This document shows, piece by piece, positions 7,993 through 61,693 of a DNA stretch of 64,000 nt. The notes under the pieces are model-generated. The model searched no databases and was not told the origin of the DNA. It worked only from the letters and a program-made list of their open reading frames with translations. The position numbers and the translations under genes were made by a program. This DNA comes from Erysipelotrichaceae bacterium. GTDB lineage: Bacteria; Bacillota_I; Bacilli_A; Erysipelotrichales; Erysipelotrichaceae. Position 1 is the stretch's first letter. Each line of letters starts with the position of its first letter. The stretch covers positions 6,241 to 70,240 of the forward strand of contig JAPXMY010000004.1 in NCBI GenBank assembly GCA_033808805.1, read 5' to 3'.

Positions 7993-9558
7993 ATGAACAC
8001 AGTTAAGATGTTGTATAATGGGAAAATCTATCAGGGCGAAGGAAATTTCTGCCAGGCTTTACTGATAGAAAATGAAACTATAGCAGGTTGTGGAAGTGAT
8101 GAAGAAATACAGCTGCTAGCTTTAAAATATAAGAATGTTGAGAAACATAATTTAGAAGGAAAATGTGTTATTGCTGGTTTTAATGACAGTCATATTCATC
8201 TTTTGAAGTACGCCAGACAACTGATAAGAGCTCAACTTCAGGACTGCAGATCAAAAAAAGAAGTTATTGATTTCTGTAAGAAGTATATCAAGGAAAATCC
8301 TGAACTAACAAGAGAAGGCTTAAGGGGCAGAGGATGGAATCAGGATAATTTTGATGATGGGAAATTATTAACTAAAGATGACCTGGATTTAATTTCTCAA
8401 GATATTCCAGTGGTGCTGGTCAGAGTATGCGGTCATATGTGTGTCTGTAACAGTAAAGCTTTAGAGCTTTTAAACTTTGAAAGTGAAGATGGTATTCTGA
8501 CTGAAAATGATGTCAATCTGACCAAAGATTTATTTTCTGAAGATGATGAGCAATTAAAAAAATTATTTCTTGAAGCTAGTAGAATAGCCTTATCATCAGG
8601 AATTACTTCGGTTCAAAGTCAGGATATTGATGACTTAAATGAAGAATTAAATATTGTTGCCCTATTAGAAGGTGTATATCAAAATAACAAAAAATTATGT
8701 CGTTACCATTTACAGGTGGGTTTTGACAGTGTGGACAGTTTTAAAAAGGCTTTAAAAAAGGGCCTTTATAAATTTAATATAGATGATGAAAGATTGACCT
8801 TTGGTCCGGTAAAGCTGTTTAAAGATGGTTCCTTAGGCGCAAAAACAGCTCTTGTATACGATGGATATATTGATGATAAGAATAATAAGGGACTTGAAGT
8901 AGTAAATCATCAGCAGATGAGAGAGTTCATTAGAGTGGCTGAGGATAATAATCTGCAGGTGATCGTTCATGCTATTGGTGATAGAGCCATTGATGAAACC
9001 TGTGAGGCCTTTATTTCTGAAATGGATCAGGAAAATAAACTGAGACATGTTGTCAATCACTGTCAGATTACCAGTTATGAAATATTAAAGAAAATTGCCA
9101 AAAACAATATCCTGGTGGCCTATCAGCCAATATTTCTGCAATATGATCTGCATATGGCCAAAAACAGAGTTGAAAAGCCACTTTTAGAAAGTTCATATGC
9201 CTTCAAGACCGCATTGGATTATGGTATCAGATGTTCTTTGGGAACGGATTGTCCAGTAGAAAGTTTAAACCCTTTTTACAATATTCATTGTGCTGTAAAC
9301 AGACAGGATCTTGAATATCAGCCAGAGTCTGGTTATTATATTGAGCAGTGTTTAACTGTACAGGAAGCAGTAGATGGCTATACGATTGGCAGCAGCTATC
9401 AGCAGTTTATGGAAAGCAGCAAAGGAAAGCTGCAAAAAGGGTATTTAGCTGACTATGTTGTAATTGACAGGGATATCTTTACCTGTAATAAAAAAGATAT
9501 TAAAAATACTGAAGTTCTTATGACCGTGATTAATGGTAAAACGGTCTATGAAAAGTAA
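7993..9558 (+). CDS. Metal-dependent amidohydrolase (Amidohydro_3 / YtcJ-like)
   Basis: HxH metal motif in GFNDSHIHLL. Later HAIGDRA, VNHCQ and GTDCPVE segments are typical of the TIM-barrel amidohydrolase fold. 521 aa. Confidence 0.8.
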   Translation: MNTVKMLYNGKIYQGEGNFCQALLIENETIAGCGSDEEIQLLALKYKNVEKHNLEGKCVIAGFNDSHIHLLKYARQLIRAQLQDCRSKKEVIDFCKKYIKENPELTREGLRGRGWNQDNFDDGKLLTKDDLDLISQDIPVVLVRVCGHMCVCNSKALELLNFESEDGILTENDVNLTKDLFSEDDEQLKKLFLEASRIALSSGITSVQSQDIDDLNEELNIVALLEGVYQNNKKLCRYHLQVGFDSVDSFKKALKKGLYKFNIDDERLTFGPVKLFKDGSLGAKTALVYDGYIDDKNNKGLEVVNHQQMREFIRVAEDNNLQVIVHAIGDRAIDETCEAFISEMDQENKLRHVVNHCQITSYEILKKIAKNNILVAYQPIFLQYDLHMAKNRVEKPLLESSYAFKTALDYGIRCSLGTDCPVESLNPFYNIHCAVNRQDLEYQPESGYYIEQCLTVQEAVDGYTIGSSYQQFMESSKGKLQKGYLADYVVIDRDIFTCNKKDIKNTEVLMTVINGKTVYEK

Positions 9559-9649
9559 AGTGGCACAACTGGAAGTGTGTGCAATAGATCAGATGAAACC
9601 TGTGTCAATAAAAAAGTTTAAAAATCTTTAAGTTTTTATGATTTTTTTG

Positions 9650-9678
9650 TTGACATAGGGTTTCCTTTGGAGTAATAT
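9650..9678 (+). promoter_or_regulatory. Sigma-A promoter of the str operon
   Basis: Consensus TTGACA (9650-9655), 17-nt spacer, TAATAT (9673-9678), with an A/T-rich UP-like tract upstream. Confidence 0.65.
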
Positions 9679-9685
9679 TAATGAG

Positions 9686-9778
9686 CAGATTGAATGGGCG
9701 AAAGCCCATATTAAATCGAAGATATATGGCACACCCGGTAATGTGTGCAAAAAAGAATATAGGAAAGGAGTAGAAATA
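9686..9778 (+). promoter_or_regulatory. Structured 5' leader of rpsL (two hairpins)
   Basis: Hairpin atgggc-gaaa-gcccat (9694-9709, GNRA loop) and hairpin gcacac...gtgtgc (9729-9748) lie between the predicted TSS and the AAAGGAG RBS. Confidence 0.3.
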
Positions 9779-10192
9779 ATGCCTACAATTAATCAATTAG
9801 TTCGTAAAGGGCGTCAAACCAAGCAAGGAAAATCAGCTTCACCAGCTTTAAATAGAGGATATAACTCATTAAAGCGTCGTGCTACACAGATCAGCTCTCC
9901 TCATAAACGTGGAGTGTGTACTCGTGTTGGAACAATGACTCCAAGGAAGCCAAACTCAGCTTTAAGAAAGTATGCACGTGTACGCTTGAGTAATGGAATG
10001 GAAGTAACAGCTTATATTCCAGGAATCGGACACAATTTACAGGAGCACAGTGTTGTGCTTATCCGTGGAGGTCGTATTAAAGACCTGCCAGGTGTTAGAT
10101 ATCATATCGTTCGCGGTACTATGGACTGCGCTGGTGTTACTAACAGAAAACAGGGCCGTTCATTATACGGTACTAAAAAACCAAAAGCATAG
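9779..10192 (+). CDS. rpsL: 30S ribosomal protein S12
   Basis: [12 protein letters not shown]... and [10 protein letters not shown]-type core ([13 protein letters not shown]). ATG 9779 follows AAAGGAG. The track start at 9743 is an upstream extension. Confidence 0.97.
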
Positions 10193-12852: not shown

Positions 12853-14040
12853 ATGGCAAAACAAAAATTTGATAGAAGTAAAGAACACGTTAATATCGGT
12901 ACAATTGGTCATATTGACCATGGTAAAACTACTTTAACTTCTGCAATCACTAAAACATTAGCAGATGCAGGTTTGGCTGAAGCAAAAGATTATAGCCAGA
13001 TCGACGGTGCTCCAGAAGAAAAAGCTAGAGGTATCACTATCAACACTTCTCACGTTGAATACCAGACAGCTAATCGTCACTATGCACACGTAGACTGCCC
13101 AGGTCATGCTGACTATATTAAGAACATGATTACTGGTGCTGCTCAAATGGACGGCGCAATTCTAGTAGTAGCTGCTACAGATGGACCAATGCCTCAGACT
13201 AATGAACACGTTTTATTAGCTAAACAGGTAGGTGTTCCTGCAATGGTAGTATTCTTAAATAAATGTGACATGATGGAAGGCGAAGAAGAATTCGTTGACT
13301 TAGCTGAAATGACAGTTAGAGAACTGTTAGACAAATACGGTTTCGATGGCGACAATGCTCCAGTAATCCGTGGTTCAGCATTAAAAGCTATGGAAGGCGA
13401 TCCATACTATAAAGAAAAAATTATGGAATTAATGGATGCTTGTGACACTTATATTCCAGCTCCAGCAAGAGAAGATGACAAACCATTCTTAATGGCTATT
13501 GAAGATACAATGACTATCACAGGTCGTGGTACTGTTGCTACAGGACGTGTTGAACGTGGTGTATTAAAAGTTAACGACCCAGTTGAAATCGTTGGTATCA
13601 GAGAAACTCAAAAAACTGTTGTTACAGGATTAGAAATGTTCAGAAAAATCTTGGACTTCACTACAGCTGGTGACAATATCGGGGCTTTATTAAGAGGTAT
13701 CGCAAGAGATGACATCGAACGTGGACAAGTTTTAGCTAAACCTGGTTCAGTTAAACCTTTCAAAAAGTTCAAAGCTCAAGTTTACGTATTATCTAAAGAA
13801 GAAGGTGGACGTCATACTCCGTTTGTAAGTAACTATCGTCCTCAGTTCTACTTCAGAACTACTGACGTAACTGGTGTTATCAATTTACCAGAAGGCGTAG
13901 ACATGTGTATGCCTGGTGATAACGTTGAAATGACAGTTGAATTAATTTATCCAATTGCTATTGAAAAAGGTACTAAGTTCTCAATCCGTGAAGGTGGAAG
14001 AACAGTAGGTGCTGGAAACGTTACTGAAATTATTGCTTAA
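12853..14040 (+). CDS. tuf: Elongation factor Tu
   Basis: [21 protein letters not shown]. 395 aa. AGGAGG RBS. Confidence 0.98.
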
Positions 14041-14061
14041 TTTTAAGTACAATAATTAATT

Positions 14062-14091
14062 AAAGAGTTGTCTGATGACAGCTCTTTTTTA
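14062..14091 (+). terminator. Rho-independent terminator of the str operon
   Basis: Stem aaagagttgtc / gacagctcttt, loop tgat, T-run to 14090. Confidence 0.7.
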
Positions 14092-14152
14092 GTTTGCCTT
14101 TATAATACAGGCTTTGGTATAATTTAAGTAATAGTAAAAGAGGTGCATAAAA

Positions 14153-14563
14153 ATGATTGGTATTTTATTGATGAGCCATGGAAAGATGGCAGAGGGCATG
14201 CTTGATGCCAGTAAACTATTTTTTGGTGATGATGTTCCAAATATTAAAGCTTTAACTTTAAAGCCAGAAGATAACCCTGAAGAATTCGATGTAAGAATTA
14301 AAGAAGCAGTTGCTGAAATAGATGATGGCAGTGGAGTTATCGCGATGGTTGACATGTTAGGTGGAACTCCTTCTAATAGAAGCATGTTTGTTTTGAATGA
14401 TAGAATGCAGGTTATTACTGGGATGAACCTGACTATGCTGCTGGAGCTTTTAGGAAGAAGATTAAGTGCTGAAGATATTGATGAAATCGACATTGACGGA
14501 TTAATGGAAATTGGCAGAACTGGAATTGTCAGCCTGAATAAATTAATGGCAGAATTGCAGTAA
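14153..14563 (+). CDS. PTS EIIA component, mannose/sorbose family (stand-alone)
   Basis: MIGILLMSHGKMAEG (phospho-His context). DMLGGTP and ITGMNLTMLLE align with the ManX-IIA motifs DTWGGSP and IAGVNIPMLVE. Confidence 0.75.
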   Translation: MIGILLMSHGKMAEGMLDASKLFFGDDVPNIKALTLKPEDNPEEFDVRIKEAVAEIDDGSGVIAMVDMLGGTPSNRSMFVLNDRMQVITGMNLTMLLELLGRRLSAEDIDEIDIDGLMEIGRTGIVSLNKLMAELQ

Positions 14564-52012: not shown

Positions 52013-53209
52013 ATGAAAAAAATAATAATAAGTTTATTGAGTTTATTACTTGTTTTAAGTTTAACAGGGTGTGATGATATAAAAATACGCCCTGATAAAC
52101 CTGAGTTAGCTGTATTGAATGCAGATACAGCTGTAAAATATGTAAAAGGTCTTTATTCTGATGCCAGAATAACCAGGTGGATGGGACCTGTAGAGAATTT
52201 ACTTCATTTGAAAGCATCATTTACTTATGATGTTGAGGCATTTAAAATATTTATCGATGCAGACGAATTTGAAAAAGTAGAAAAAAATAAATGTGGTTTT
52301 TCTGTTGAAACATTTCAAAAAAGGATAGATGAAATATTCGGCAAGGATAGATTCAGAGTGCAGGATTTATTTAAAGATGAACTTGACGATGGTTATGTGA
52401 TGTTCAAAGTAAACCCTGACGCTACAAAGTTTCCTGAAATAAAAGCGATCAGCTATTCAGCTTTAGAAGTAAAAGAGCACTATGTTGTAGTGGAAAGATT
52501 ATCAGAATATGATGTCTCATATGAAGGCAAGAATTACAATGTAAAATTAAGAGATTTAATTGTTGTTTATTCAACTTTAGAAGGATTAAAGGTTTGGGAT
52601 TGTCAATCTGGATTAATTGATTCAGATTTAGAGTTGAACTATTTTCCTCCATTACCACAAAAAGAAGTTCCTGAAGAAAATACCAGTTGGATAGACATGA
52701 CATTTACATTAGAAGATATAGTATTCAATTATCCTTGGTCAGTTAAAATGTTGGAAGAAGTTAGCTGGGTATGCTGTAATGATCCTACAATGACTATTAA
52801 AGCGGGTGAAGGATTATATACTTATATGGATTATCCTAAGTATGCTGGTTATGTAGAAACTATCTTCATGACTTTACAGGTTAAGAATTATTCAGATGAA
52901 GATACAATATTGAGAAATTGTTTTGCCTGGAGTATAAAGTTTGAAATAATGGCCAACAATAGAACAAAAGAAATAGTTGATGAACCATATAGACTTGTAC
53001 TGGCTAATGGAATTACCTGGGGTTCGACAGAAGAAGAAATTATTGAAGCTTATGGTGAGCCTCAATCACTAATGGATGGAAATGATGGCAGCAGCTATAC
53101 AAAAATAGAGTACGAATATTTTGATGGTCAATATAGATGCGCGATGGTATTCTGGTTGAGAGATCATATTGGATTATATGAAATAGAGTTAAAGAAGTAT
53201 ATATATTAA
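52013..53209 (+). CDS. Lipoprotein of unknown function
   Basis: Signal peptide with lipobox LSLTGC. 398 aa. I recognised no family motif. Confidence 0.75.
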   Translation: MKKIIISLLSLLLVLSLTGCDDIKIRPDKPELAVLNADTAVKYVKGLYSDARITRWMGPVENLLHLKASFTYDVEAFKIFIDADEFEKVEKNKCGFSVETFQKRIDEIFGKDRFRVQDLFKDELDDGYVMFKVNPDATKFPEIKAISYSALEVKEHYVVVERLSEYDVSYEGKNYNVKLRDLIVVYSTLEGLKVWDCQSGLIDSDLELNYFPPLPQKEVPEENTSWIDMTFTLEDIVFNYPWSVKMLEEVSWVCCNDPTMTIKAGEGLYTYMDYPKYAGYVETIFMTLQVKNYSDEDTILRNCFAWSIKFEIMANNRTKEIVDEPYRLVLANGITWGSTEEEIIEAYGEPQSLMDGNDGSSYTKIEYEYFDGQYRCAMVFWLRDHIGLYEIELKKYIY

Positions 53210-53423: not shown

Positions 53424-53453
53424 AAAAAGGCAAGATTATATGTTCTTGCCTTT
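53424..53453 (-). terminator. Rho-independent terminator of the 822-aa gene
   Basis: 10-bp stem aaaggcaaga / tcttgccttt. On the minus strand it is followed by a T-run. It begins 4 nt after the stop codon. Confidence 0.65.
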
Positions 53454-53457
53454 AAAA

Positions 53458-55926
53458 CTATCTTTTGGTTCCAATATCATAATTCGTTATAACTATTGAG
53501 TCAACAACATTTTTGACAGAGTCAAATAATGTAACATATCCTTTTAAAGACTTGGCCTTTACTTTTAGAATTTCTGATCTGGGGTTGATAAATATTTTTG
53601 TTTTTCCTTTTCCATTTTTAGCTTCCTGTACCAGGTTGGCAACAGCTGAATTGCCATCAAAGGCAAATAGAAACGAATTTCTTCTTTCGAATATTTCATA
53701 ATTAAAAGATTTATATATTCCCATTTCCTGAGATTCAATAGATAGTCTGATACCGGTAATATCAGCTTTAGAAAGCGCAGCTGCCTGAGACTTATCCATT
53801 AGAGAGGGGATAATGCAATAGATATCAAAATTGCGTCTATTATTATTTAACAAATATCTTTCATAGGCTAACAGTTTGTGGCCGATTACAAAGAATACTT
53901 TTTCTGGGTCCAGTCTGTTTAACATTGAACGGATTAAACGTCTATCGAAATCTGTTATTTTAATTGCTTTATCATCAGTGGTAAAGCTGGCACCAGCAAT
54001 AATAATGGGGAATTTATCCCAAGGCAATTCTTTGATTTTTTCTTTAAAAATTGGATAAGAAGGCACTTTATTAATTTCAAATTTTACTTTATTTTCTGTT
54101 GTAGCATTTTCAAATAATTCAGTGTAGTATTGTTCAACGGATTTATCTTTTCGCTGTTTGTTAAATTGTTTTGATTTGTATAAAAATGCCTTTTGACTTC
54201 TTTCAATAATTTCTTTTTCTGTTTTTTTCATTGTTCTGAATTGATTATCAGTTACTTTTAAAAGATTCATTAAGGCTAATTGTTCATCAATGCTATCTGT
54301 GCCATATAAACCACAACCATCAGTGCCCATAACGCATTTGATATCATTTTCTAAATATGTTTTAAGTGGATGAGCGGATAAGTCAGTCAAGTTATTTAAT
54401 CTGACATTACTCGTTATTTGGAATTCCAAGACAACATTTTTATTTTTAAGTGTGTTTAATAACCTTTTACCTTTGACTGATTTTAAATCATCGGAATAGA
54501 TACCGTGTCCAATTCGAACATAAGGAAACTGTTGATTTTCATTCAGTGAATCTTCAATCAACTCTATAGCCTTAGCCATATTATCTTTTAGGGAATCGTT
54601 TTCACCAGCATGCACTCTGATGGTCCAGTGTTTATCCTTATTGGCAATAGTTGAAACTATTTCTCTAATTACCGACTTTAATTCGCTGATGTCGTTTATT
54701 TCTTCACCGACAAAATCACTGCCAACGACATATGGGTCTTTGCTGACAATTTTTAAGACACTCATTGCTTCCGTCAAATAGTTAGCTGATTGAATGTCAT
54801 CTCTAACCAAAGTTAAAGGGATTCTTCTAATAGCTGCTAAAAATCTGATGTCAACACCAGTTTCTTTTTTAGCAAGAGGCAGAATGTGATGAATCTGTTT
54901 AAGCAAATCAATAGCTGATTGCTCTTTTTTAACTAAAGTAGTATCACTTATTTCTACATAATTGATTTGTTGAGCCTGGTAACTTCTGGCTATCCATAAC
55001 AGCTTATCTTCAAAGAAGGTTAATTCACGATAGTTTTTATTATTATAATCTTTGAGCATCCTGACTAAATAACGATAAACATCAACATCCTGAAGTTTTT
55101 CAAAATTGGTTAGAGGAATTCTATAGGCACTTAATTTAGGTTTAGTGAAGACATAACGATATAAGTAAAGCTTTTCCAGATTAGTAAAAACTGCCTGTGA
55201 ATCTTTTAAAATAGCCAGAGAATTTCTTATTTTAGAAATGTTTTCCACAGAGTTTTCCAAGTTTAGAAGAATTAAGTCAGCAAAGTTGATAAAAGTATTA
55301 TCGTCAATTTTTCTATTCAGGTGTTTATCGGATAAAGAAGAATCAATGACTGTTAAAGCTACCTGCTCTCTTTGTTTTTCCAACATGTGATACTGTCCAT
55401 CAGATAGTTTTAAATTTAATTTTTTTACATAATAGTATGGATAATCTATCTGATGCTTAATACCTAAAGCAATTAAGGCATCAGGAGTCAGGTTAGCATT
55501 GGCATGAGTGTGCAAATCGGTTCTTAGTTTGATGTCTTCTAAGATATAAGACTTTATCAAAGTGTCTCTAATATCAAAATTGTATTCTTTGGTTTGCGAC
55601 ATCAGTGTTTTAGAAATAGCTGGCACAAGAGCATTGATTTCTACTTTACCATTGGGATAGATGTTGGCTATCTTGGTTTCATTCAGTCTAAAGACATAAA
55701 CTCTTTGTCCATCACCTTTGATGAAACAGGGGATAGTTCCTTTTATTACCAAACGATTATTTTGATGAACAGTTTTCTGATTTAAGACTTTGGCTAAATT
55801 GACAATCAGATTATCTGTTTTATGATTTGGAGTAAAAAGGCAATAAGAAAGGATATGTTTGGACATATCTAAGTTTATTGCTATATCTTTCTCTTTATCT
55901 AAATAAAACTTACCAAAGTGACTCAT
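53458..55926 (-). CDS. Multidomain protein: unknown N-terminal domain + adenosine-deaminase-fold catalytic core + C-terminal LOG/SLOG-like Rossmann domain
   Basis: ADA motifs in order: DLHTH (aa 137-141), VGSDFVGEE (400-408), RVHAGE (437-442), RIGHG (471-475), ITSN (504-507), GTDG (534-537). The C-terminus (aa ~636-812) has PIIIAGAS, VFFVIGH, FDIYCIIPS and FAFDGNSAVANLVQE in LOG-family order. Confidence 0.8.
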   Translation of the reverse strand: MSHFGKFYLDKEKDIAINLDMSKHILSYCLFTPNHKTDNLIVNLAKVLNQKTVHQNNRLVIKGTIPCFIKGDGQRVYVFRLNETKIANIYPNGKVEINALVPAISKTLMSQTKEYNFDIRDTLIKSYILEDIKLRTDLHTHANANLTPDALIALGIKHQIDYPYYYVKKLNLKLSDGQYHMLEKQREQVALTVIDSSLSDKHLNRKIDDNTFINFADLILLNLENSVENISKIRNSLAILKDSQAVFTNLEKLYLYRYVFTKPKLSAYRIPLTNFEKLQDVDVYRYLVRMLKDYNNKNYRELTFFEDKLLWIARSYQAQQINYVEISDTTLVKKEQSAIDLLKQIHHILPLAKKETGVDIRFLAAIRRIPLTLVRDDIQSANYLTEAMSVLKIVSKDPYVVGSDFVGEEINDISELKSVIREIVSTIANKDKHWTIRVHAGENDSLKDNMAKAIELIEDSLNENQQFPYVRIGHGIYSDDLKSVKGKRLLNTLKNKNVVLEFQITSNVRLNNLTDLSAHPLKTYLENDIKCVMGTDGCGLYGTDSIDEQLALMNLLKVTDNQFRTMKKTEKEIIERSQKAFLYKSKQFNKQRKDKSVEQYYTELFENATTENKVKFEINKVPSYPIFKEKIKELPWDKFPIIIAGASFTTDDKAIKITDFDRRLIRSMLNRLDPEKVFFVIGHKLLAYERYLLNNNRRNFDIYCIIPSLMDKSQAAALSKADITGIRLSIESQEMGIYKSFNYEIFERRNSFLFAFDGNSAVANLVQEAKNGKGKTKIFINPRSEILKVKAKSLKGYVTLFDSVKNVVDSIVITNYDIGTKR

Positions 55927-55956
55927 CTTTAAAATTGATTATTTAAAGTATAGTAT

Positions 55957-55988
55957 AAAGAAAAACTGATAACAACCAGTTTTTCTTT
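55957..55988 (-). terminator. Rho-independent terminator of the upstream (minus-strand) hypothetical gene
   Basis: Perfect 12-bp stem aaagaaaaactg / cagtttttcttt, 8-nt loop, 3 nt after the stop at 55992. Confidence 0.65.
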
Positions 55989-55991
55989 ATT

Positions 55992-57020
55992 TTAAAATTT
56001 ATTGTGAACTTTTTCAGCAAATCCTATTTGGCCAGTCAGTGAAATGAGGGTTCCATCATCTAATATACAGTCACCATAAAATCTTCCAAAGACCTGATGC
56101 TGGTCGGATTTAAGTATTATAATGTCTGTACAGCTGGCTCTATCAATAATAGGTTCAAAGCGCAATGTCAAGCGATTATCATTGCTGGTAAAATTCCAGG
56201 TTCCATAGTAATCGTCTTTGCCATCTTTAGTCGGTAAACCAAAATCAACTTTATCCAGTTTGTGAGCTTTTCCTTTATAGAACAGCATGTTTTCAGTAGC
56301 TGCTGATGTGTTTCCAAATCCATATCCCAGGTTGAAACCAAAAGGCTGGCCATCAACATAGGTGCTTAGTGAAGCCCAAAACCAGGTGTTATCATAAGTC
56401 CATATCCCTCTTCCCCAGTCCAAGACAGCTGCAGAATCTTTCTTGTTAAAGACATATTCATCATCTCCGATAGAGACAATACCGCTGGCTGCCATACAAT
56501 TCAATTTCTGGTTGTAATAGAAGTGTCCAGGTTTATCAAAAGGTGTCGCAATAACCATGCTTTCCGCTGGTATATCTGTTAATTCAACACTGAAATTAAT
56601 AGTTTTCTTGTCTTTAAAATTATTCATGTAACCAGACAGGATTCTTTTATTGCCTTCATTTCTAAAGGAGATATTATATTTCTTATTGCCATAACTTATA
56701 TCACCGGTAACTGAAGTTCTAGGGAAATTTTTCTTACCCAGGGTTAAAAGCTGCATTGGTGATTTGGTGACTTCCCACTTTTCATTGAAATCAATGAAAG
56801 ATACAGAATCAAGACCCATATAACCATTATCAGCCAAAGTAAGACAGAGGGCAAATTTATCATTCGAGATACAATAGTAATCCCATTCTTTAGTTTTAAA
56901 ACGAGTCTTGAGATCGGTTTTCTTATTGTAGATCGGTAACATCTTTTTAGCATAACCAGGTTCTATTAAATTATTATTTTCATCCAACAGATTACCTGCA
57001 GTAGTAATTTCATGTTGCAT
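55992..57020 (-). CDS. Conserved hypothetical, predominantly beta protein (DUF2804-like, assigned from memory)
   Basis: ATG 57020 follows GAGGAGAG. The track start at 57110 adds a low-complexity extension. 342 aa, no signal peptide. Confidence 0.6.
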   Translation of the reverse strand: MQHEITTAGNLLDENNNLIEPGYAKKMLPIYNKKTDLKTRFKTKEWDYYCISNDKFALCLTLADNGYMGLDSVSFIDFNEKWEVTKSPMQLLTLGKKNFPRTSVTGDISYGNKKYNISFRNEGNKRILSGYMNNFKDKKTINFSVELTDIPAESMVIATPFDKPGHFYYNQKLNCMAASGIVSIGDDEYVFNKKDSAAVLDWGRGIWTYDNTWFWASLSTYVDGQPFGFNLGYGFGNTSAATENMLFYKGKAHKLDKVDFGLPTKDGKDDYYGTWNFTSNDNRLTLRFEPIIDRASCTDIIILKSDQHQVFGRFYGDCILDDGTLISLTGQIGFAEKVHNKF

Positions 57021-57210
57021 ATTATAGCTCTCCTCTCTATATAAAAATAATACCATATAATCAAGTTGAAAAAATGTTGAAAATAAAATAAAAAATGTAA
57101 ATGATTTCATACAAATTTCATAATTATATAGTTTAATATAATTGTAATAGAGGAATTTCTCTCGTTTCCCCCTTCTTGAGTAATAAATATTTCAAAAATA
57201 ATGGTGTCTA

Positions 57211-57239
57211 TTGACACCTTTATTTTGTGATAATATGAT
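57211..57239 (+). promoter_or_regulatory. Candidate sigma-A promoter of the PPC-domain gene
   Basis: TTGACA (57211-57216), 17-nt spacer, TATGAT (57234-57239). Confidence 0.35.
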
Positions 57240-57256
57240 TAAATCAGGTGATGAAA

Positions 57257-57658
57257 ATGATTTTGGTTAAAAGACTGCAATATGGAAATGATTTAAAAAG
57301 AGAAATAGAAAACTTATGTTATGAAAATAATATCACCAGTGCAGTTGTAATCTCTTCAGTTGGCTGTGTCTACAAGGCAACGATCAGGCTTGCTGATGGT
57401 AAAACGATTAGAGAATACAACGATAACTATGAAATTTTGTCAGTTAATGGAACGATAAGTAAGGATGGCAGTCATTTACATATAAGTTTCAGTGATATAA
57501 ATGGTGACACATTTGGTGGCCATTTGTGTTATAATACCTTAGTTAATACGACCTGCGAATTAGTGCTGGCTGGTATTGACGAATATTCTTTTAAAAGAGA
57601 ATTTGATGAAAAGACAGGATATGATGAACTTGTCATCAATAAAAAGGAGGATTTTTAA
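57257..57658 (+). CDS. PPC (DUF296) domain protein
   Basis: SSVGCVYKATIRLADG...ILSVNGTIS...HLHISFSD...GGHL pattern of PPC/DUF296. ATG 57257 lies 6 nt after AGGTGA (57248 and 57251 are possible alternatives). Confidence 0.7.
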   Translation: MILVKRLQYGNDLKREIENLCYENNITSAVVISSVGCVYKATIRLADGKTIREYNDNYEILSVNGTISKDGSHLHISFSDINGDTFGGHLCYNTLVNTTCELVLAGIDEYSFKREFDEKTGYDELVINKKEDF

Positions 57659-57895
57659 ATGGATTTAACAAAATATTTCCCAGGATCAGCAGAGGCTAAA
57701 AAAAGCGTTTTACATTTAGTGGTAGTTTTAGTATTTTATGCTGTAGCAGTATGGGCTGCACAATTCTTGGCTGCTATCTTATCAATCATTCCATTAATTG
57801 GAGGTTTAGCTGGGTTAATTATCGGGATAGTTAGACTCTATATTGGTATAGCGGCTATCGTAGCATTTCTAGCATTCTTTAAAGTTGTTAAGTAA
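57659..57895 (+). CDS. Small membrane protein (two predicted TM helices)
   Basis: The ATG immediately follows the upstream stop. 78 aa with two long hydrophobic segments. Confidence 0.6.
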   Translation: MDLTKYFPGSAEAKKSVLHLVVVLVFYAVAVWAAQFLAAILSIIPLIGGLAGLIIGIVRLYIGIAAIVAFLAFFKVVK

Positions 57896-61618: not shown

Positions 61619-61693
61619 TGGCTGGGGATAAAGGATTTGAACCTTTGAATGACGGAGTCAGAGTCCGTTGCCTTACCGCTTGGCTAATCCCCA
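61619..61693 (-). tRNA. tRNA-Gln (anticodon CUG), CCA encoded
   Basis: The reverse complement folds as a cloverleaf: acceptor TGGGGAT/ATCCCCA, anticodon stem ACGGA/TCCGT with loop CTCTGAC, T-arm AAAGG-TTCAAAT-CCTTT. 75 nt. Closely resembles Bacillus tRNA-Gln. Confidence 0.9.

Follow-up and report, generated by a model that had tools for sequence, protein, structure and literature searches.

The ADA-SLOG gene and its product

The window analyzed here, i.e., the whole 64,000-nucleotide stretch of contig JAPXMY010000004.1 (positions 6,241 to 70,240; Erysipelotrichaceae bacterium, assembly GCA_033808805.1), carries on its minus strand, at positions 53458-55926, a complete coding sequence of 822 amino acids (aa), taken from the list of open reading frames (ORFs), in which an N-terminal domain, a split adenosine deaminase (ADA) core, a linker, and a SLOG-fold domain follow one another. 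An earlier note on this DNA had read the ORF as a complete ADA core fused to a LOG/SLOG-like domain and had proposed it as a candidate nucleotide-sensing effector; the ORF and every motif quoted for it were present in the order described at the positions checked. Translation starts at an ATG, and the same start, MS(H/Y)FGKFYLDKEKD, is found in homologues. The ADA-SLOG architecture is real and appears to be undescribed: no description of the fusion was found in the searchable literature, in agreement with the earlier note, which knew of none, and a passing mention in the 2015 SLOG survey by Burroughs et al. is possible. The protein is most likely a ligand-regulated adenine-nucleotide deaminase.

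Deaminase core

The first strand of the core, at aa 135-170 (55417-55524, minus strand), contains the metal ligands H139 and H141 of the HxH motif and, scanned alone, matches positions 3-38 of the Pfam A_deaminase profile. The main part of the core occupies aa 312-575 (54202-54993, minus strand), and the A_deaminase family (PF00962) is matched there over aa 312-568 with 75.9 bits against a cut-off of 27 (E 4e-21). Along the protein, the motifs are DLHTH (aa 137-141), VGSDFVGEE (401-409), RVHAGE (437-442, including H439 and E442), RIGHG (471-475, including H474), ITSN (504-507, with the TSN of the core), and GTDG (534-537, including D536 and G537). Because the profile match stops at position 38 and resumes at position 77, the core is split by about 100 residues; the profile positions give approximately 103, close to the 100 counted previously between HxH and GxDxxGxE. 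The splitting insertion, at aa 171-311 (54994-55416, minus strand), bears the highly conserved motif QAVFTNLEKLYLYRYVFTK, and N229, S236, Q244, F247, and R257 are invariant in both clades of the family, namely that of the window protein (clade I) and a distant sister clade (clade II).

In 14 sequences spanning both clades, H139, H141, H439, E442, H474, and D536 were invariant, as were T136 and D137 in both clades. All the metal ligands (HxH, the His of HxxE, and the Asp of TD) and the catalytic Glu and His are present. The ADA-fold zinc deaminase core is intact and predicted to be catalytically complete, as had been proposed, but it is atypical. The TDD motif of classical ADA is replaced by TDG, with G537 invariant among the 14 sequences of both clades, a departure from the classical signature that suggests altered purine recognition. 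The residue following HxH-x is Asn in the window protein (HTHANA) and N, H, S, or T across the family, never Asp; at the same position, classical ADA has Asp (HRHLDG), while the AMP-level deaminases human ADAL and Arabidopsis MAPDA have Asn (HAHLNG). We take this Asp and the second Asp of TDD to be the ribose 5'-OH and purine N7 contacts of classical ADA. Since the first of these positions is never Asp, being Asn here as in ADAL and MAPDA, and the second is Gly, the substrate would be an adenine nucleotide carrying a 5' phosphate (AMP, ATP, or dATP class) instead of free adenosine.

Regarding curated families, the NCBIfam equivalogs for Add (PRK09358.x) remained far below their cut-off (61.6 bits versus 459), and TIGR01430 scored 52.9 bits against a cut-off of 216.55; the protein is therefore an ADA-fold enzyme and not an Add orthologue. 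The nearest solved proteins in profile searches against the PDB were classical bacterial and Plasmodium ADAs (2e-14) and ADAL (6e-7), and neither Cad1 nor RdrB was among the PDB sequence matches. The PADLOC model CARF_ADA, which represents Cad1, was matched at 1.3e-10, limited to the ADA part (profile positions 338-561).

C-terminal SLOG-fold domain

A linker composed of a helix and a short strand connects the core to the C-terminal domain (aa 576-637; 54016-54201, minus strand). It is the least conserved stretch of the protein, with a conservation minimum at aa 571-600 and a lower predicted local distance difference test (pLDDT) in AlphaFold2. The Rossmannoid domain that follows, at aa 638-815 (53482-54015, minus strand), was delimited by the AlphaFold2 model and Foldseek. 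Built on a 28-sequence alignment, the model of aa 590-822 reached a pLDDT of 83.2 and a predicted template-modeling score (pTM) of 0.80 and displayed a Rossmannoid order of strands and helices. More than 30 top Foldseek matches against the PDB all belonged to the SLOG superfamily (probability 1.0, E 1e-4 to 1e-2), with TMt values of 0.54-0.66 for the top SLOG matches. The best match was H. pylori DprA (E 1e-4), and the others included the LOG proteins of P. aeruginosa (5.7e-4), Arabidopsis, B. subtilis (YvdD), C. glutamicum, and M. tuberculosis (E 5.7e-4 to 1e-2), the Moco carrier protein (8.5e-4), TRPM4 (2.4e-3), the N-terminal domains of TRPM2 and TRPM8, ShosA (approximately 1e-2), and YgdH/PpnN (about 1e-2 to 2.4e-2); ThsA was not within the top 50. 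DprA, the Moco carrier protein, and TRPM are known as non-catalytic SLOGs. As modeled, the C-terminal domain has the SLOG-superfamily fold, so the LOG/SLOG likeness noted earlier holds at the fold level, and an unrelated fold was not obtained.

Neither end domain was matched by sequence, whether by Pfam at E 10 or by phmmer and hmmsearch against the PDB. For the C-terminal domain, the curated SLOG models in Pfam (Lysine_decarbox, LDcluster4, LSDAT_prok, DprA) gave no match even at E 10, PF03641 and TIGR00730 were not matched in the window protein (Pfam, NCBIfam), and hhalign of its profile against four LOG structures gave a probability of 0.2%. As sequence methods yielded nothing for this domain, its fold was assigned only by structure prediction. 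An indirect sequence link to Pfam LSDAT_prok ("SLOG in TRPM, prokaryote") passes through P0292, a 927-aa protein of a Chlamydiales metagenome-assembled genome (MAG), which combines A_deaminase (1.7e-23) with a C-terminal LSDAT_prok match of 24.4 bits against a cut-off of 25.4, and whose C-terminal domain aligned with the window C-terminal profile at an hhalign probability of 79% (E 1.6e-5). This protein, from outside the Firmicutes, is the closest independent case of ADA plus SLOG; it differs from the window protein in its phylum, its N-terminal region, and its overall sequence (25% identical), and it carries no name in public records.

The motifs of the domain are PIIIAGAS (aa 640-647), VFFVIGHKLLAYE (677-689), FDIYCIIPS (700-708), and FAFDGNSAVANLVQE (754-768). 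The LOG motifs PGGxGTxxE and GGGxxGxMG are absent; their counterparts in the window protein are FDGNSAVANLVQE and VIGHKLLAYE, corresponding at the family level to FDGNSxxANLVQE and VIGHKLxxxE. The distant clade does not conserve the Arg of ERRN, which is the putative equivalent of the catalytic Arg in LOG. The earlier statement that the glycines had been lost is accurate for these LOG glycine motifs and does not apply to the loop after strand 1, which reads AGGS in most homologues and AGAS in the window lineage. This Gly-rich loop is accompanied by conserved strand-end loops, both features of SLOG domains. Invariant residues were found after strand 1 (G645, S647), after strand 2 (G682, E689), and on helix 4 (Y738, K739); also conserved were D757/G758 in the FDGNS that follows strand 5 and, on the subsequent helix, N764 and E/D768, followed by N771-G772-K773. 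With pocket equivalences set by secondary-structure order, the conserved residues line, in the model, the loops where SLOG proteins bind phosphoribosyl ligands. A SLOG fold lacking the LOG catalytic motifs fits ligand binding better than a LOG-type hydrolase, and the earlier preference for a sensing SLOG over a catalytic LOG is the better-supported reading.

A search of 1.84 billion representative proteins with the profile of the C-terminal domain returned 161 matches. The ten longest all contained ADA (10/10), while the 14 shorter ones that were aligned to the query fell on the same C-terminal stretch, several of them from their first residue. These short matches begin at the equivalent of the conserved M566 or at contig edges, and we regard them as fragments because one that was traced, on a contig of 997 bp, starts 15 nt from its edge. 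A stand-alone form of the SLOG-like domain was consequently rejected, the short matches examined being fragments, and the domain appears, from the sequences collected, to exist only fused to ADA.

N-terminal domain

The N-terminal domain (aa 1-134; 55525-55926, minus strand) was modeled by AlphaFold2 as a beta-rich alpha+beta fold with 9 strands and 2 helices (pLDDT 84.3). It had been described as beta-rich and of no assignable family, and this remains the case: the fold had no significant match in the PDB (best E 0.11, TM ~0.3) and no CARF-like fold match, and Pfam gave no match at E 10. The domain is kept in the distant clade, where L9, D10, N43, G63, and Q111 are invariant or nearly so.

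Family distribution and selection

The ADA-SLOG family comprises more than 5,662 proteins, most of them of 819-832 aa, which public records name "adenosine deaminase" or "hypothetical protein". Carriers span at least 576 species, counting one genome per GTDB species. All of the 80 carriers listed were Firmicutes of gut, rumen, or digesters, belonging to Erysipelotrichia, Lachnospiraceae, Oscillospiraceae, and other Clostridia, and cultured examples include Lachnospira multipara, Bilifractor porci, and Stecheria intestinalis; the taxonomy relies on MAG labels and is somewhat uncertain. Identity within the window's family is at least 50%.

When compared to relatives 85-94% identical, each module (N-terminal, ADA, SLOG) had a ratio of nonsynonymous to synonymous substitution rates (dN/dS) of 0.04-0.07; with values of approximately 0.05 throughout, all three modules are under strong purifying selection. 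One cluster at 70% identity or more (L012-L031) groups Erysipelotrichaceae, Lachnospiraceae, Oscillospiraceae, and "Bacilli" MAGs whose proteins are 77-86% identical over 822 aa. Such identity across orders is too high for vertical descent and points to horizontal spread of the gene. The members of this cluster share no neighbouring genes, a pattern of recent transfer among gut Firmicutes with no obvious vehicle. Plasmid or phage copies were not found, as tblastn searches of 72,556 plasmids and 50,697 phages returned only distant add genes. The window-clade gene is a chromosomal accessory gene, horizontally spread and under strong purifying selection.

Between the window gene and its homologue in L009 (5742-8207), the synonymous divergence (dS) rose from 0.21 for the N-terminal domain to 0.34 for the ADA core and 1.14 for the SLOG domain. 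Such unevenness along the gene suggests intragenic recombination between lineages.

Genomic context of the window gene

The genes around the ADA-SLOG gene encode RpoA (rpoA), RplQ (rplQ), a lipoprotein-like ORF, a DUF2804 protein, a PCC-domain protein, an F420-ligase-like protein, a glycerate kinase, and a histidine phosphatase. The earlier note had placed the gene at a point of broken synteny. On the contrary, related Erysipelotrichia keep the order DUF2804 - ADA gene - rplQ - rpoA, which recurs in an 86% relative (L005); DUF2804 and PCC neighbours were found in six Erysipelotrichia loci, with rplQ in five, and relatives of 85-94% identity carry the ADA-SLOG gene at the same locus. Given this recurrence, the gene is a stable resident and not a recent island.

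The gene had also been described as insulated by its own terminators, and terminator-like hairpins do lie on both sides, at 53426-53453 and 55955-55990. The first, on the minus strand and 5 nt past the stop codon of the ADA-SLOG gene, has a 10-bp stem with 4 G-C pairs, followed by TTAATCTTAT. On the other side, an intergenic hairpin past the DUF2804 stop has an A+T-rich stem of 16 pairs (55990-55955) and overlaps a promoter-like site, TTGTTA-17-TATACT, at 55975-55947, which is a consensus match only; these predicted features together cover 55947-55990 (minus strand). No strong Shine-Dalgarno sequence was seen upstream of the ATG. The sole Rfam match in the window was a tRNA gene at 61622-61693 (minus strand), and no ribosomal-protein leader family was among the Rfam matches of the window despite its long ribosomal-protein operon.

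With respect to composition, the GC content of the gene (0.316) is lower than that of rpoA and rplQ (0.353-0.366), as the hand-counted samples of the earlier note had indicated, but it does not amount to an anomaly: neighbouring non-ribosomal genes have values of 0.317-0.347, and the GC content at third codon positions (GC3) is 0.27 within a window range of 0.20-0.33. Both measures being ordinary for the window, there is no compositional anomaly, and a signal of horizontal transfer from composition was rejected on account of the normal GC3.

Between rplQ and the ADA gene, at 52013-53209 on the plus strand, lies the lipoprotein-like ORF of 398 aa (a signal peptide followed by Cys), for which no Pfam or NCBIfam family was found. 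The same slot in L005 holds a 148-aa ORF; the content of the slot is thus variable, while the ADA gene is constant. On the other flank, positions 55992-57895 contain the DUF2804 gene, a divergent PCC-domain gene, and a 78-aa hydrophobic ORF. The true start of DUF2804 is probably located about 30 codons downstream, since the Pfam match begins at residue 32 of 372 and relatives have 342 aa.

Defence association was assessed from approximately 130 Pfam-annotated neighbouring genes and from the clustering of every ORF within 6 kb of the gene in 80 GTDB loci. No conserved neighbour emerged from the 80 loci, the maximum being a generic ABC ATPase in 12 of them. Six Pfam-annotated contexts were of a housekeeping nature, with thyA, folA, ilvBN, Hsp33, NAD synthase, MutY, DapF, PurC, fab genes, and biotin ligase. 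In these six contexts and the window (about 130 genes), no TIR, cyclase, CD-NTase, or recognized defence system was present, and the TIR, cyclase, or CD-NTase partners for which the earlier note had suggested looking did not emerge as conserved neighbours in the 80 loci either. Likewise, the window genes scanned on both flanks included no cas family, and Rfam revealed no CRISPR repeat.

Some neighbours are related to purines. In nine loci belonging to a single Clostridia clade, namely L050 (5436-5897), L036, L042, L047, L048, L049, L056, L063, and L074, the gene directly upstream of ADA-SLOG encodes a CDA-fold deaminase of 153 aa, which is TadA/GuaD-like but falls below the TadA cut-off; in L050, the locus at which orientation was checked, this gene is on the same strand. 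It is possibly a link to purine metabolism, or only lineage synteny. In a single metagenomic contig, L094, a LOG-family gene (9303-9893; TIGR00730 at 170 bits, together with Pfam Lysine_decarbox and LDcluster4) is located 108 bp upstream of the ADA-SLOG gene. These purine-related neighbours are weak hints towards purine metabolism.

Sister clade

Clade II is rare and consists of about 11 proteins of 860-1012 aa with the full architecture, 28-30% identical to the window protein. Two of its loci (L091, 8445-13190; L093, 8521-13173) present a conserved four-gene operon composed, in this order, of genes for a helical protein of ~160 aa, a 323-aa protein, the ADA-SLOG protein, and an overlapping protein of ~157 aa. 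On the shorter contigs L088, L089, and L090, the contig edge truncates the upstream gene, and the ~157-aa gene again follows downstream. The homologue of the ~160-aa protein in L088 has a weak match to a Zn-dependent phospholipase C-like family (Zn_dep_PLPC), beyond which the partner proteins received no assignment from Pfam, PADLOC, or the PDB. One clade II copy lies in a defence island, where it is followed by DUF6664, a MazG-like protein, a helicase of the Schlafen type, an ATPase resembling AbiLi (PADLOC 1.4e-44), and a TIR protein of the ThsB type, and others are located beside Mob_Pre and TnpV or beside PcfJ and NikA, i.e., on mobilizable or conjugative elements. Clade II is a candidate new conflict system. 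The ~157-aa partner has no homologue in the window. A homologue (E ~1e-19 to 1e-21) is encoded in L035 at 13770-14222 (minus strand), 5 kb from a clade I ADA-SLOG gene and at the extreme end of that locus, and this genome may carry both clades.

Proposed function and alternative explanations

We propose that the 822-aa product is a stand-alone, three-module purine-nucleotide deaminase. Its SLOG domain would bind a nucleotide and control the deaminase allosterically, as CARF does in Cad1 or as the regulatory region does in eukaryotic AMP deaminase, and would not form a second catalytic center; the N-terminal domain and the insertion would mediate oligomer assembly, by analogy with RdrB. The role of the window copy would be the regulated control of the adenine-nucleotide pool, in homeostasis or salvage, and not dedicated phage defence. 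We hold this assignment of the window gene to regulated nucleotide-pool control tentatively, at a little under an even chance. Such a homeostatic enzyme would give bacteria a counterpart to eukaryotic AMP deaminase, which is allosterically regulated, and, to our knowledge, a regulated AMP-deaminase-like activity lies outside the standard picture of purine metabolism in Firmicutes.

Several points weigh against this proposal. The ligand, the substrate, and the oligomeric state are all inferred. Structurally, only the isolated end domains were modeled, from shallow alignments (28 and 13 sequences), and the Foldseek TM-scores are only moderate (0.45-0.66). No purine operon is consistently linked to the gene, and no riboswitch or other regulatory RNA was detected 5' of it, as the window and ten loci gave only tRNAs at the Rfam gathering threshold. 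Clade II sits in defence or mobile-element contexts, and the patchy, horizontally transferred distribution suits accessory conflict genes as well as metabolic ones. Finally, the bacterial ADA-fold proteins with a sensor or a large insertion that we know of, Cad1 and RdrB, are all defence effectors.

The strongest alternative is the role that had originally been proposed for the gene, i.e., a stand-alone antiphage effector of abortive infection. Its SLOG domain would sense an infection-derived nucleotide (a cyclic ADP-ribose (cADPR) isomer, a cyclic oligonucleotide, or a nucleotide that is phage-made or modified) and switch on the conversion of ATP and dATP into ITP (inosine triphosphate) and its deoxy form (dITP), as in Cad1 and RADAR. 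ThsA uses SLOG as its sensor domain, the clade II operon has a copy near AbiLi-like, ThsB-TIR, Schlafen-helicase, and MazG genes and others on mobile elements, and 77-86% identity across orders denotes horizontal transfer. The layout of a sensor plus ADA also parallels Cad1 (PMC11645235), and the N-terminal extension and core-splitting insertion parallel RdrB (PMC9994260). However, the window's clade has neither a signal-generating partner nor a conserved neighbour in 80 loci, the approximately 130 annotated neighbouring genes are free of defence genes, and the plasmid and phage collections searched hold no copies. Family identity of at least 50% and dN/dS of ~0.05 differ from the 24-28% identity of RdrB (PMC9994260), PADLOC matches nothing beyond the ADA core, and ThsA is outside the top 50 structural matches. 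With its housekeeping context, stable synteny, lack of a partner, and low dN/dS, the window gene lends no support to the effector role assigned to it before, which we now consider unlikely, though still to be reckoned with.

In a broader version, both clades would be nucleotide-gated ATP/dATP deaminases acting as immune effectors, clade II as the effector of the four-gene system and clade I as its partner-less single-gene form, with SLOG directly sensing a phage-derived or infection-induced nucleotide and the deaminase causing adenine-nucleotide depletion and ITP poisoning. This version is doubtful, but it deserves attention. It would describe a single-gene, SLOG-gated system of nucleotide poisoning. 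ADA-fold deaminases with a fused sensor (Cad1, RADAR) have lately become a theme in bacterial immunity, to which SLOG would add a third sensor type, together with an undescribed N-terminal fold, and the ADA-SLOG family is far commoner than Cad1-like proteins. Additionally, the stand-alone chromosomal clade and the operon-embedded mobile clade offer a comparison for the interconversion of conflict effectors and housekeeping enzymes.

In comparison with nucleotide-pool control by a sensing SLOG, bifunctional purine salvage, also raised in the earlier note, would make the SLOG domain an N-glycosidase of the LOG/PpnN type that frees adenine from AMP, with the ADA domain converting the adenine to hypoxanthine. 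This alternative is improbable. LOG enzymes are among the best structural matches, conservation extends to the AGGS loop after strand 1 and to the acidic residue of the helix following strand 5, purine-related neighbours occur sporadically, and the missing ribose 5'-OH-binding Asp is also compatible with a free-base substrate; the domain nevertheless lacks PGGxGTxxE and GGGxxGxMG, the distant clade does not keep its candidate catalytic Arg, the LOG models of Pfam and NCBIfam were not matched, and hhalign against LOG reached 0.2%. Moreover, DprA, the Moco carrier protein, and TRPM, which are known as non-catalytic, match as well as LOG does. The salvage alternative is therefore weaker than when it was first put forward.

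A further proposal, quite improbable in our judgment, is a deaminase of a special adenine compound, such as N6-modified AMP (the kind of substrate taken by the N6-methyl-AMP deaminase ADAL/MAPDA), a toxic adenosine analogue, or a signaling nucleotide to be inactivated, with SLOG serving for substrate capture. It would account for the significant ADAL match (6e-7) and the Asn shared in HxH-x-N, for the family-wide invariant TDG in place of TDD, and for the location of clade II on conjugative elements, which would suit an anti-defence enzyme that destroys signals; SLOG/LOG proteins are also generally known to bind N6-substituted AMP and ligands of the ADP-ribose type. The proposal is nonetheless purely inferential, and no context ties the gene to the turnover of modifications in RNA or DNA, to antibiotic clusters, or to signaling enzymes.

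Finally, the SLOG-fold and N-terminal domains could be merely structural, i.e., oligomerization scaffolds of a constitutively active adenosine deaminase that senses no ligand, given that LOG and DprA domains dimerize or hexamerize and that several public records say simply "adenosine deaminase". Although the RdrB insertions serve assembly (PMC9994260), this is very unlikely, as the invariant SLOG residues cluster on ligand-binding loops rather than on surfaces, the NCBIfam adenosine-deaminase equivalogs remain far below cut-off (61.6 versus 459), and the protein lacks both the Asp that binds the ribose 5'-OH and the second Asp of TDD.

Comparison with known systems

The window protein shares the ADA-fold core, the zinc ligands, and the catalytic Glu and His with Add, ADAL/MAPDA, and eukaryotic AMP deaminase, and it resembles ADAL in the Asn following HxH-x. 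It differs from this group in its TDG motif, its 100-residue insertion, and its two extra domains. Eukaryotic AMP deaminase likewise has about 800 aa, and its regulatory region responds to nucleotides. Regarding LOG and PpnN (YgdH), the C-terminal domain has their fold and strand order, whereas PGGxGTxxE, GGGxxGxMG, and a match to their hidden Markov models are all missing.

When compared to Thoeris, in which SLOG is the sensor domain of ThsA, the window protein likewise has a C-terminal SLOG fold after an enzyme acting on adenine nucleotides, with the Gly-rich loop and the acidic pocket residue conserved. In contrast to ThsA, its effector is an ADA-fold deaminase and not a SIR2, transmembrane, or Macro domain; no ThsB/TIR gene is adjacent in the window or conserved in the 80 loci, and PADLOC gave no ThsA match.

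The spacing from HxH to HxxE is 298 aa in the window protein, 344 aa in RdrB, and approximately 197 aa in classical ADA. Like RdrB, the ATP/dATP deaminase of RADAR, the window protein is large and of the ADA fold, is extended at its N-terminus, and has its core split between the HxH and HxxE strands; in RdrB, the insertion divides the deaminase core, and the N-terminal extension and insertion build the oligomer (PMC9994260). RdrB has no SLOG domain, and the window gene has no RdrA AAA+ partner, its neighbours being DUF2804 and the lipoprotein-like ORF, and no PADLOC RdrB match. RdrB systems are 24-28% identical to each other, a divergence called typical of immunity proteins (PMC9994260), as opposed to at least 50% in the window's family.

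Cad1, the CRISPR-associated CARF-adenosine deaminase (PMC11645235), combines a Rossmann-like nucleotide-sensor domain and an ADA-fold deaminase in one polypeptide, as the window protein would. The sensor is an N-terminal CARF in Cad1 and a C-terminal SLOG in the window protein, and Cad1 resides in a type III CRISPR-cas neighbourhood, whereas the window gene has no cas or CRISPR context. Among the systems compared, Cad1 is the best analogue for the working mode proposed for the ADA-SLOG protein.

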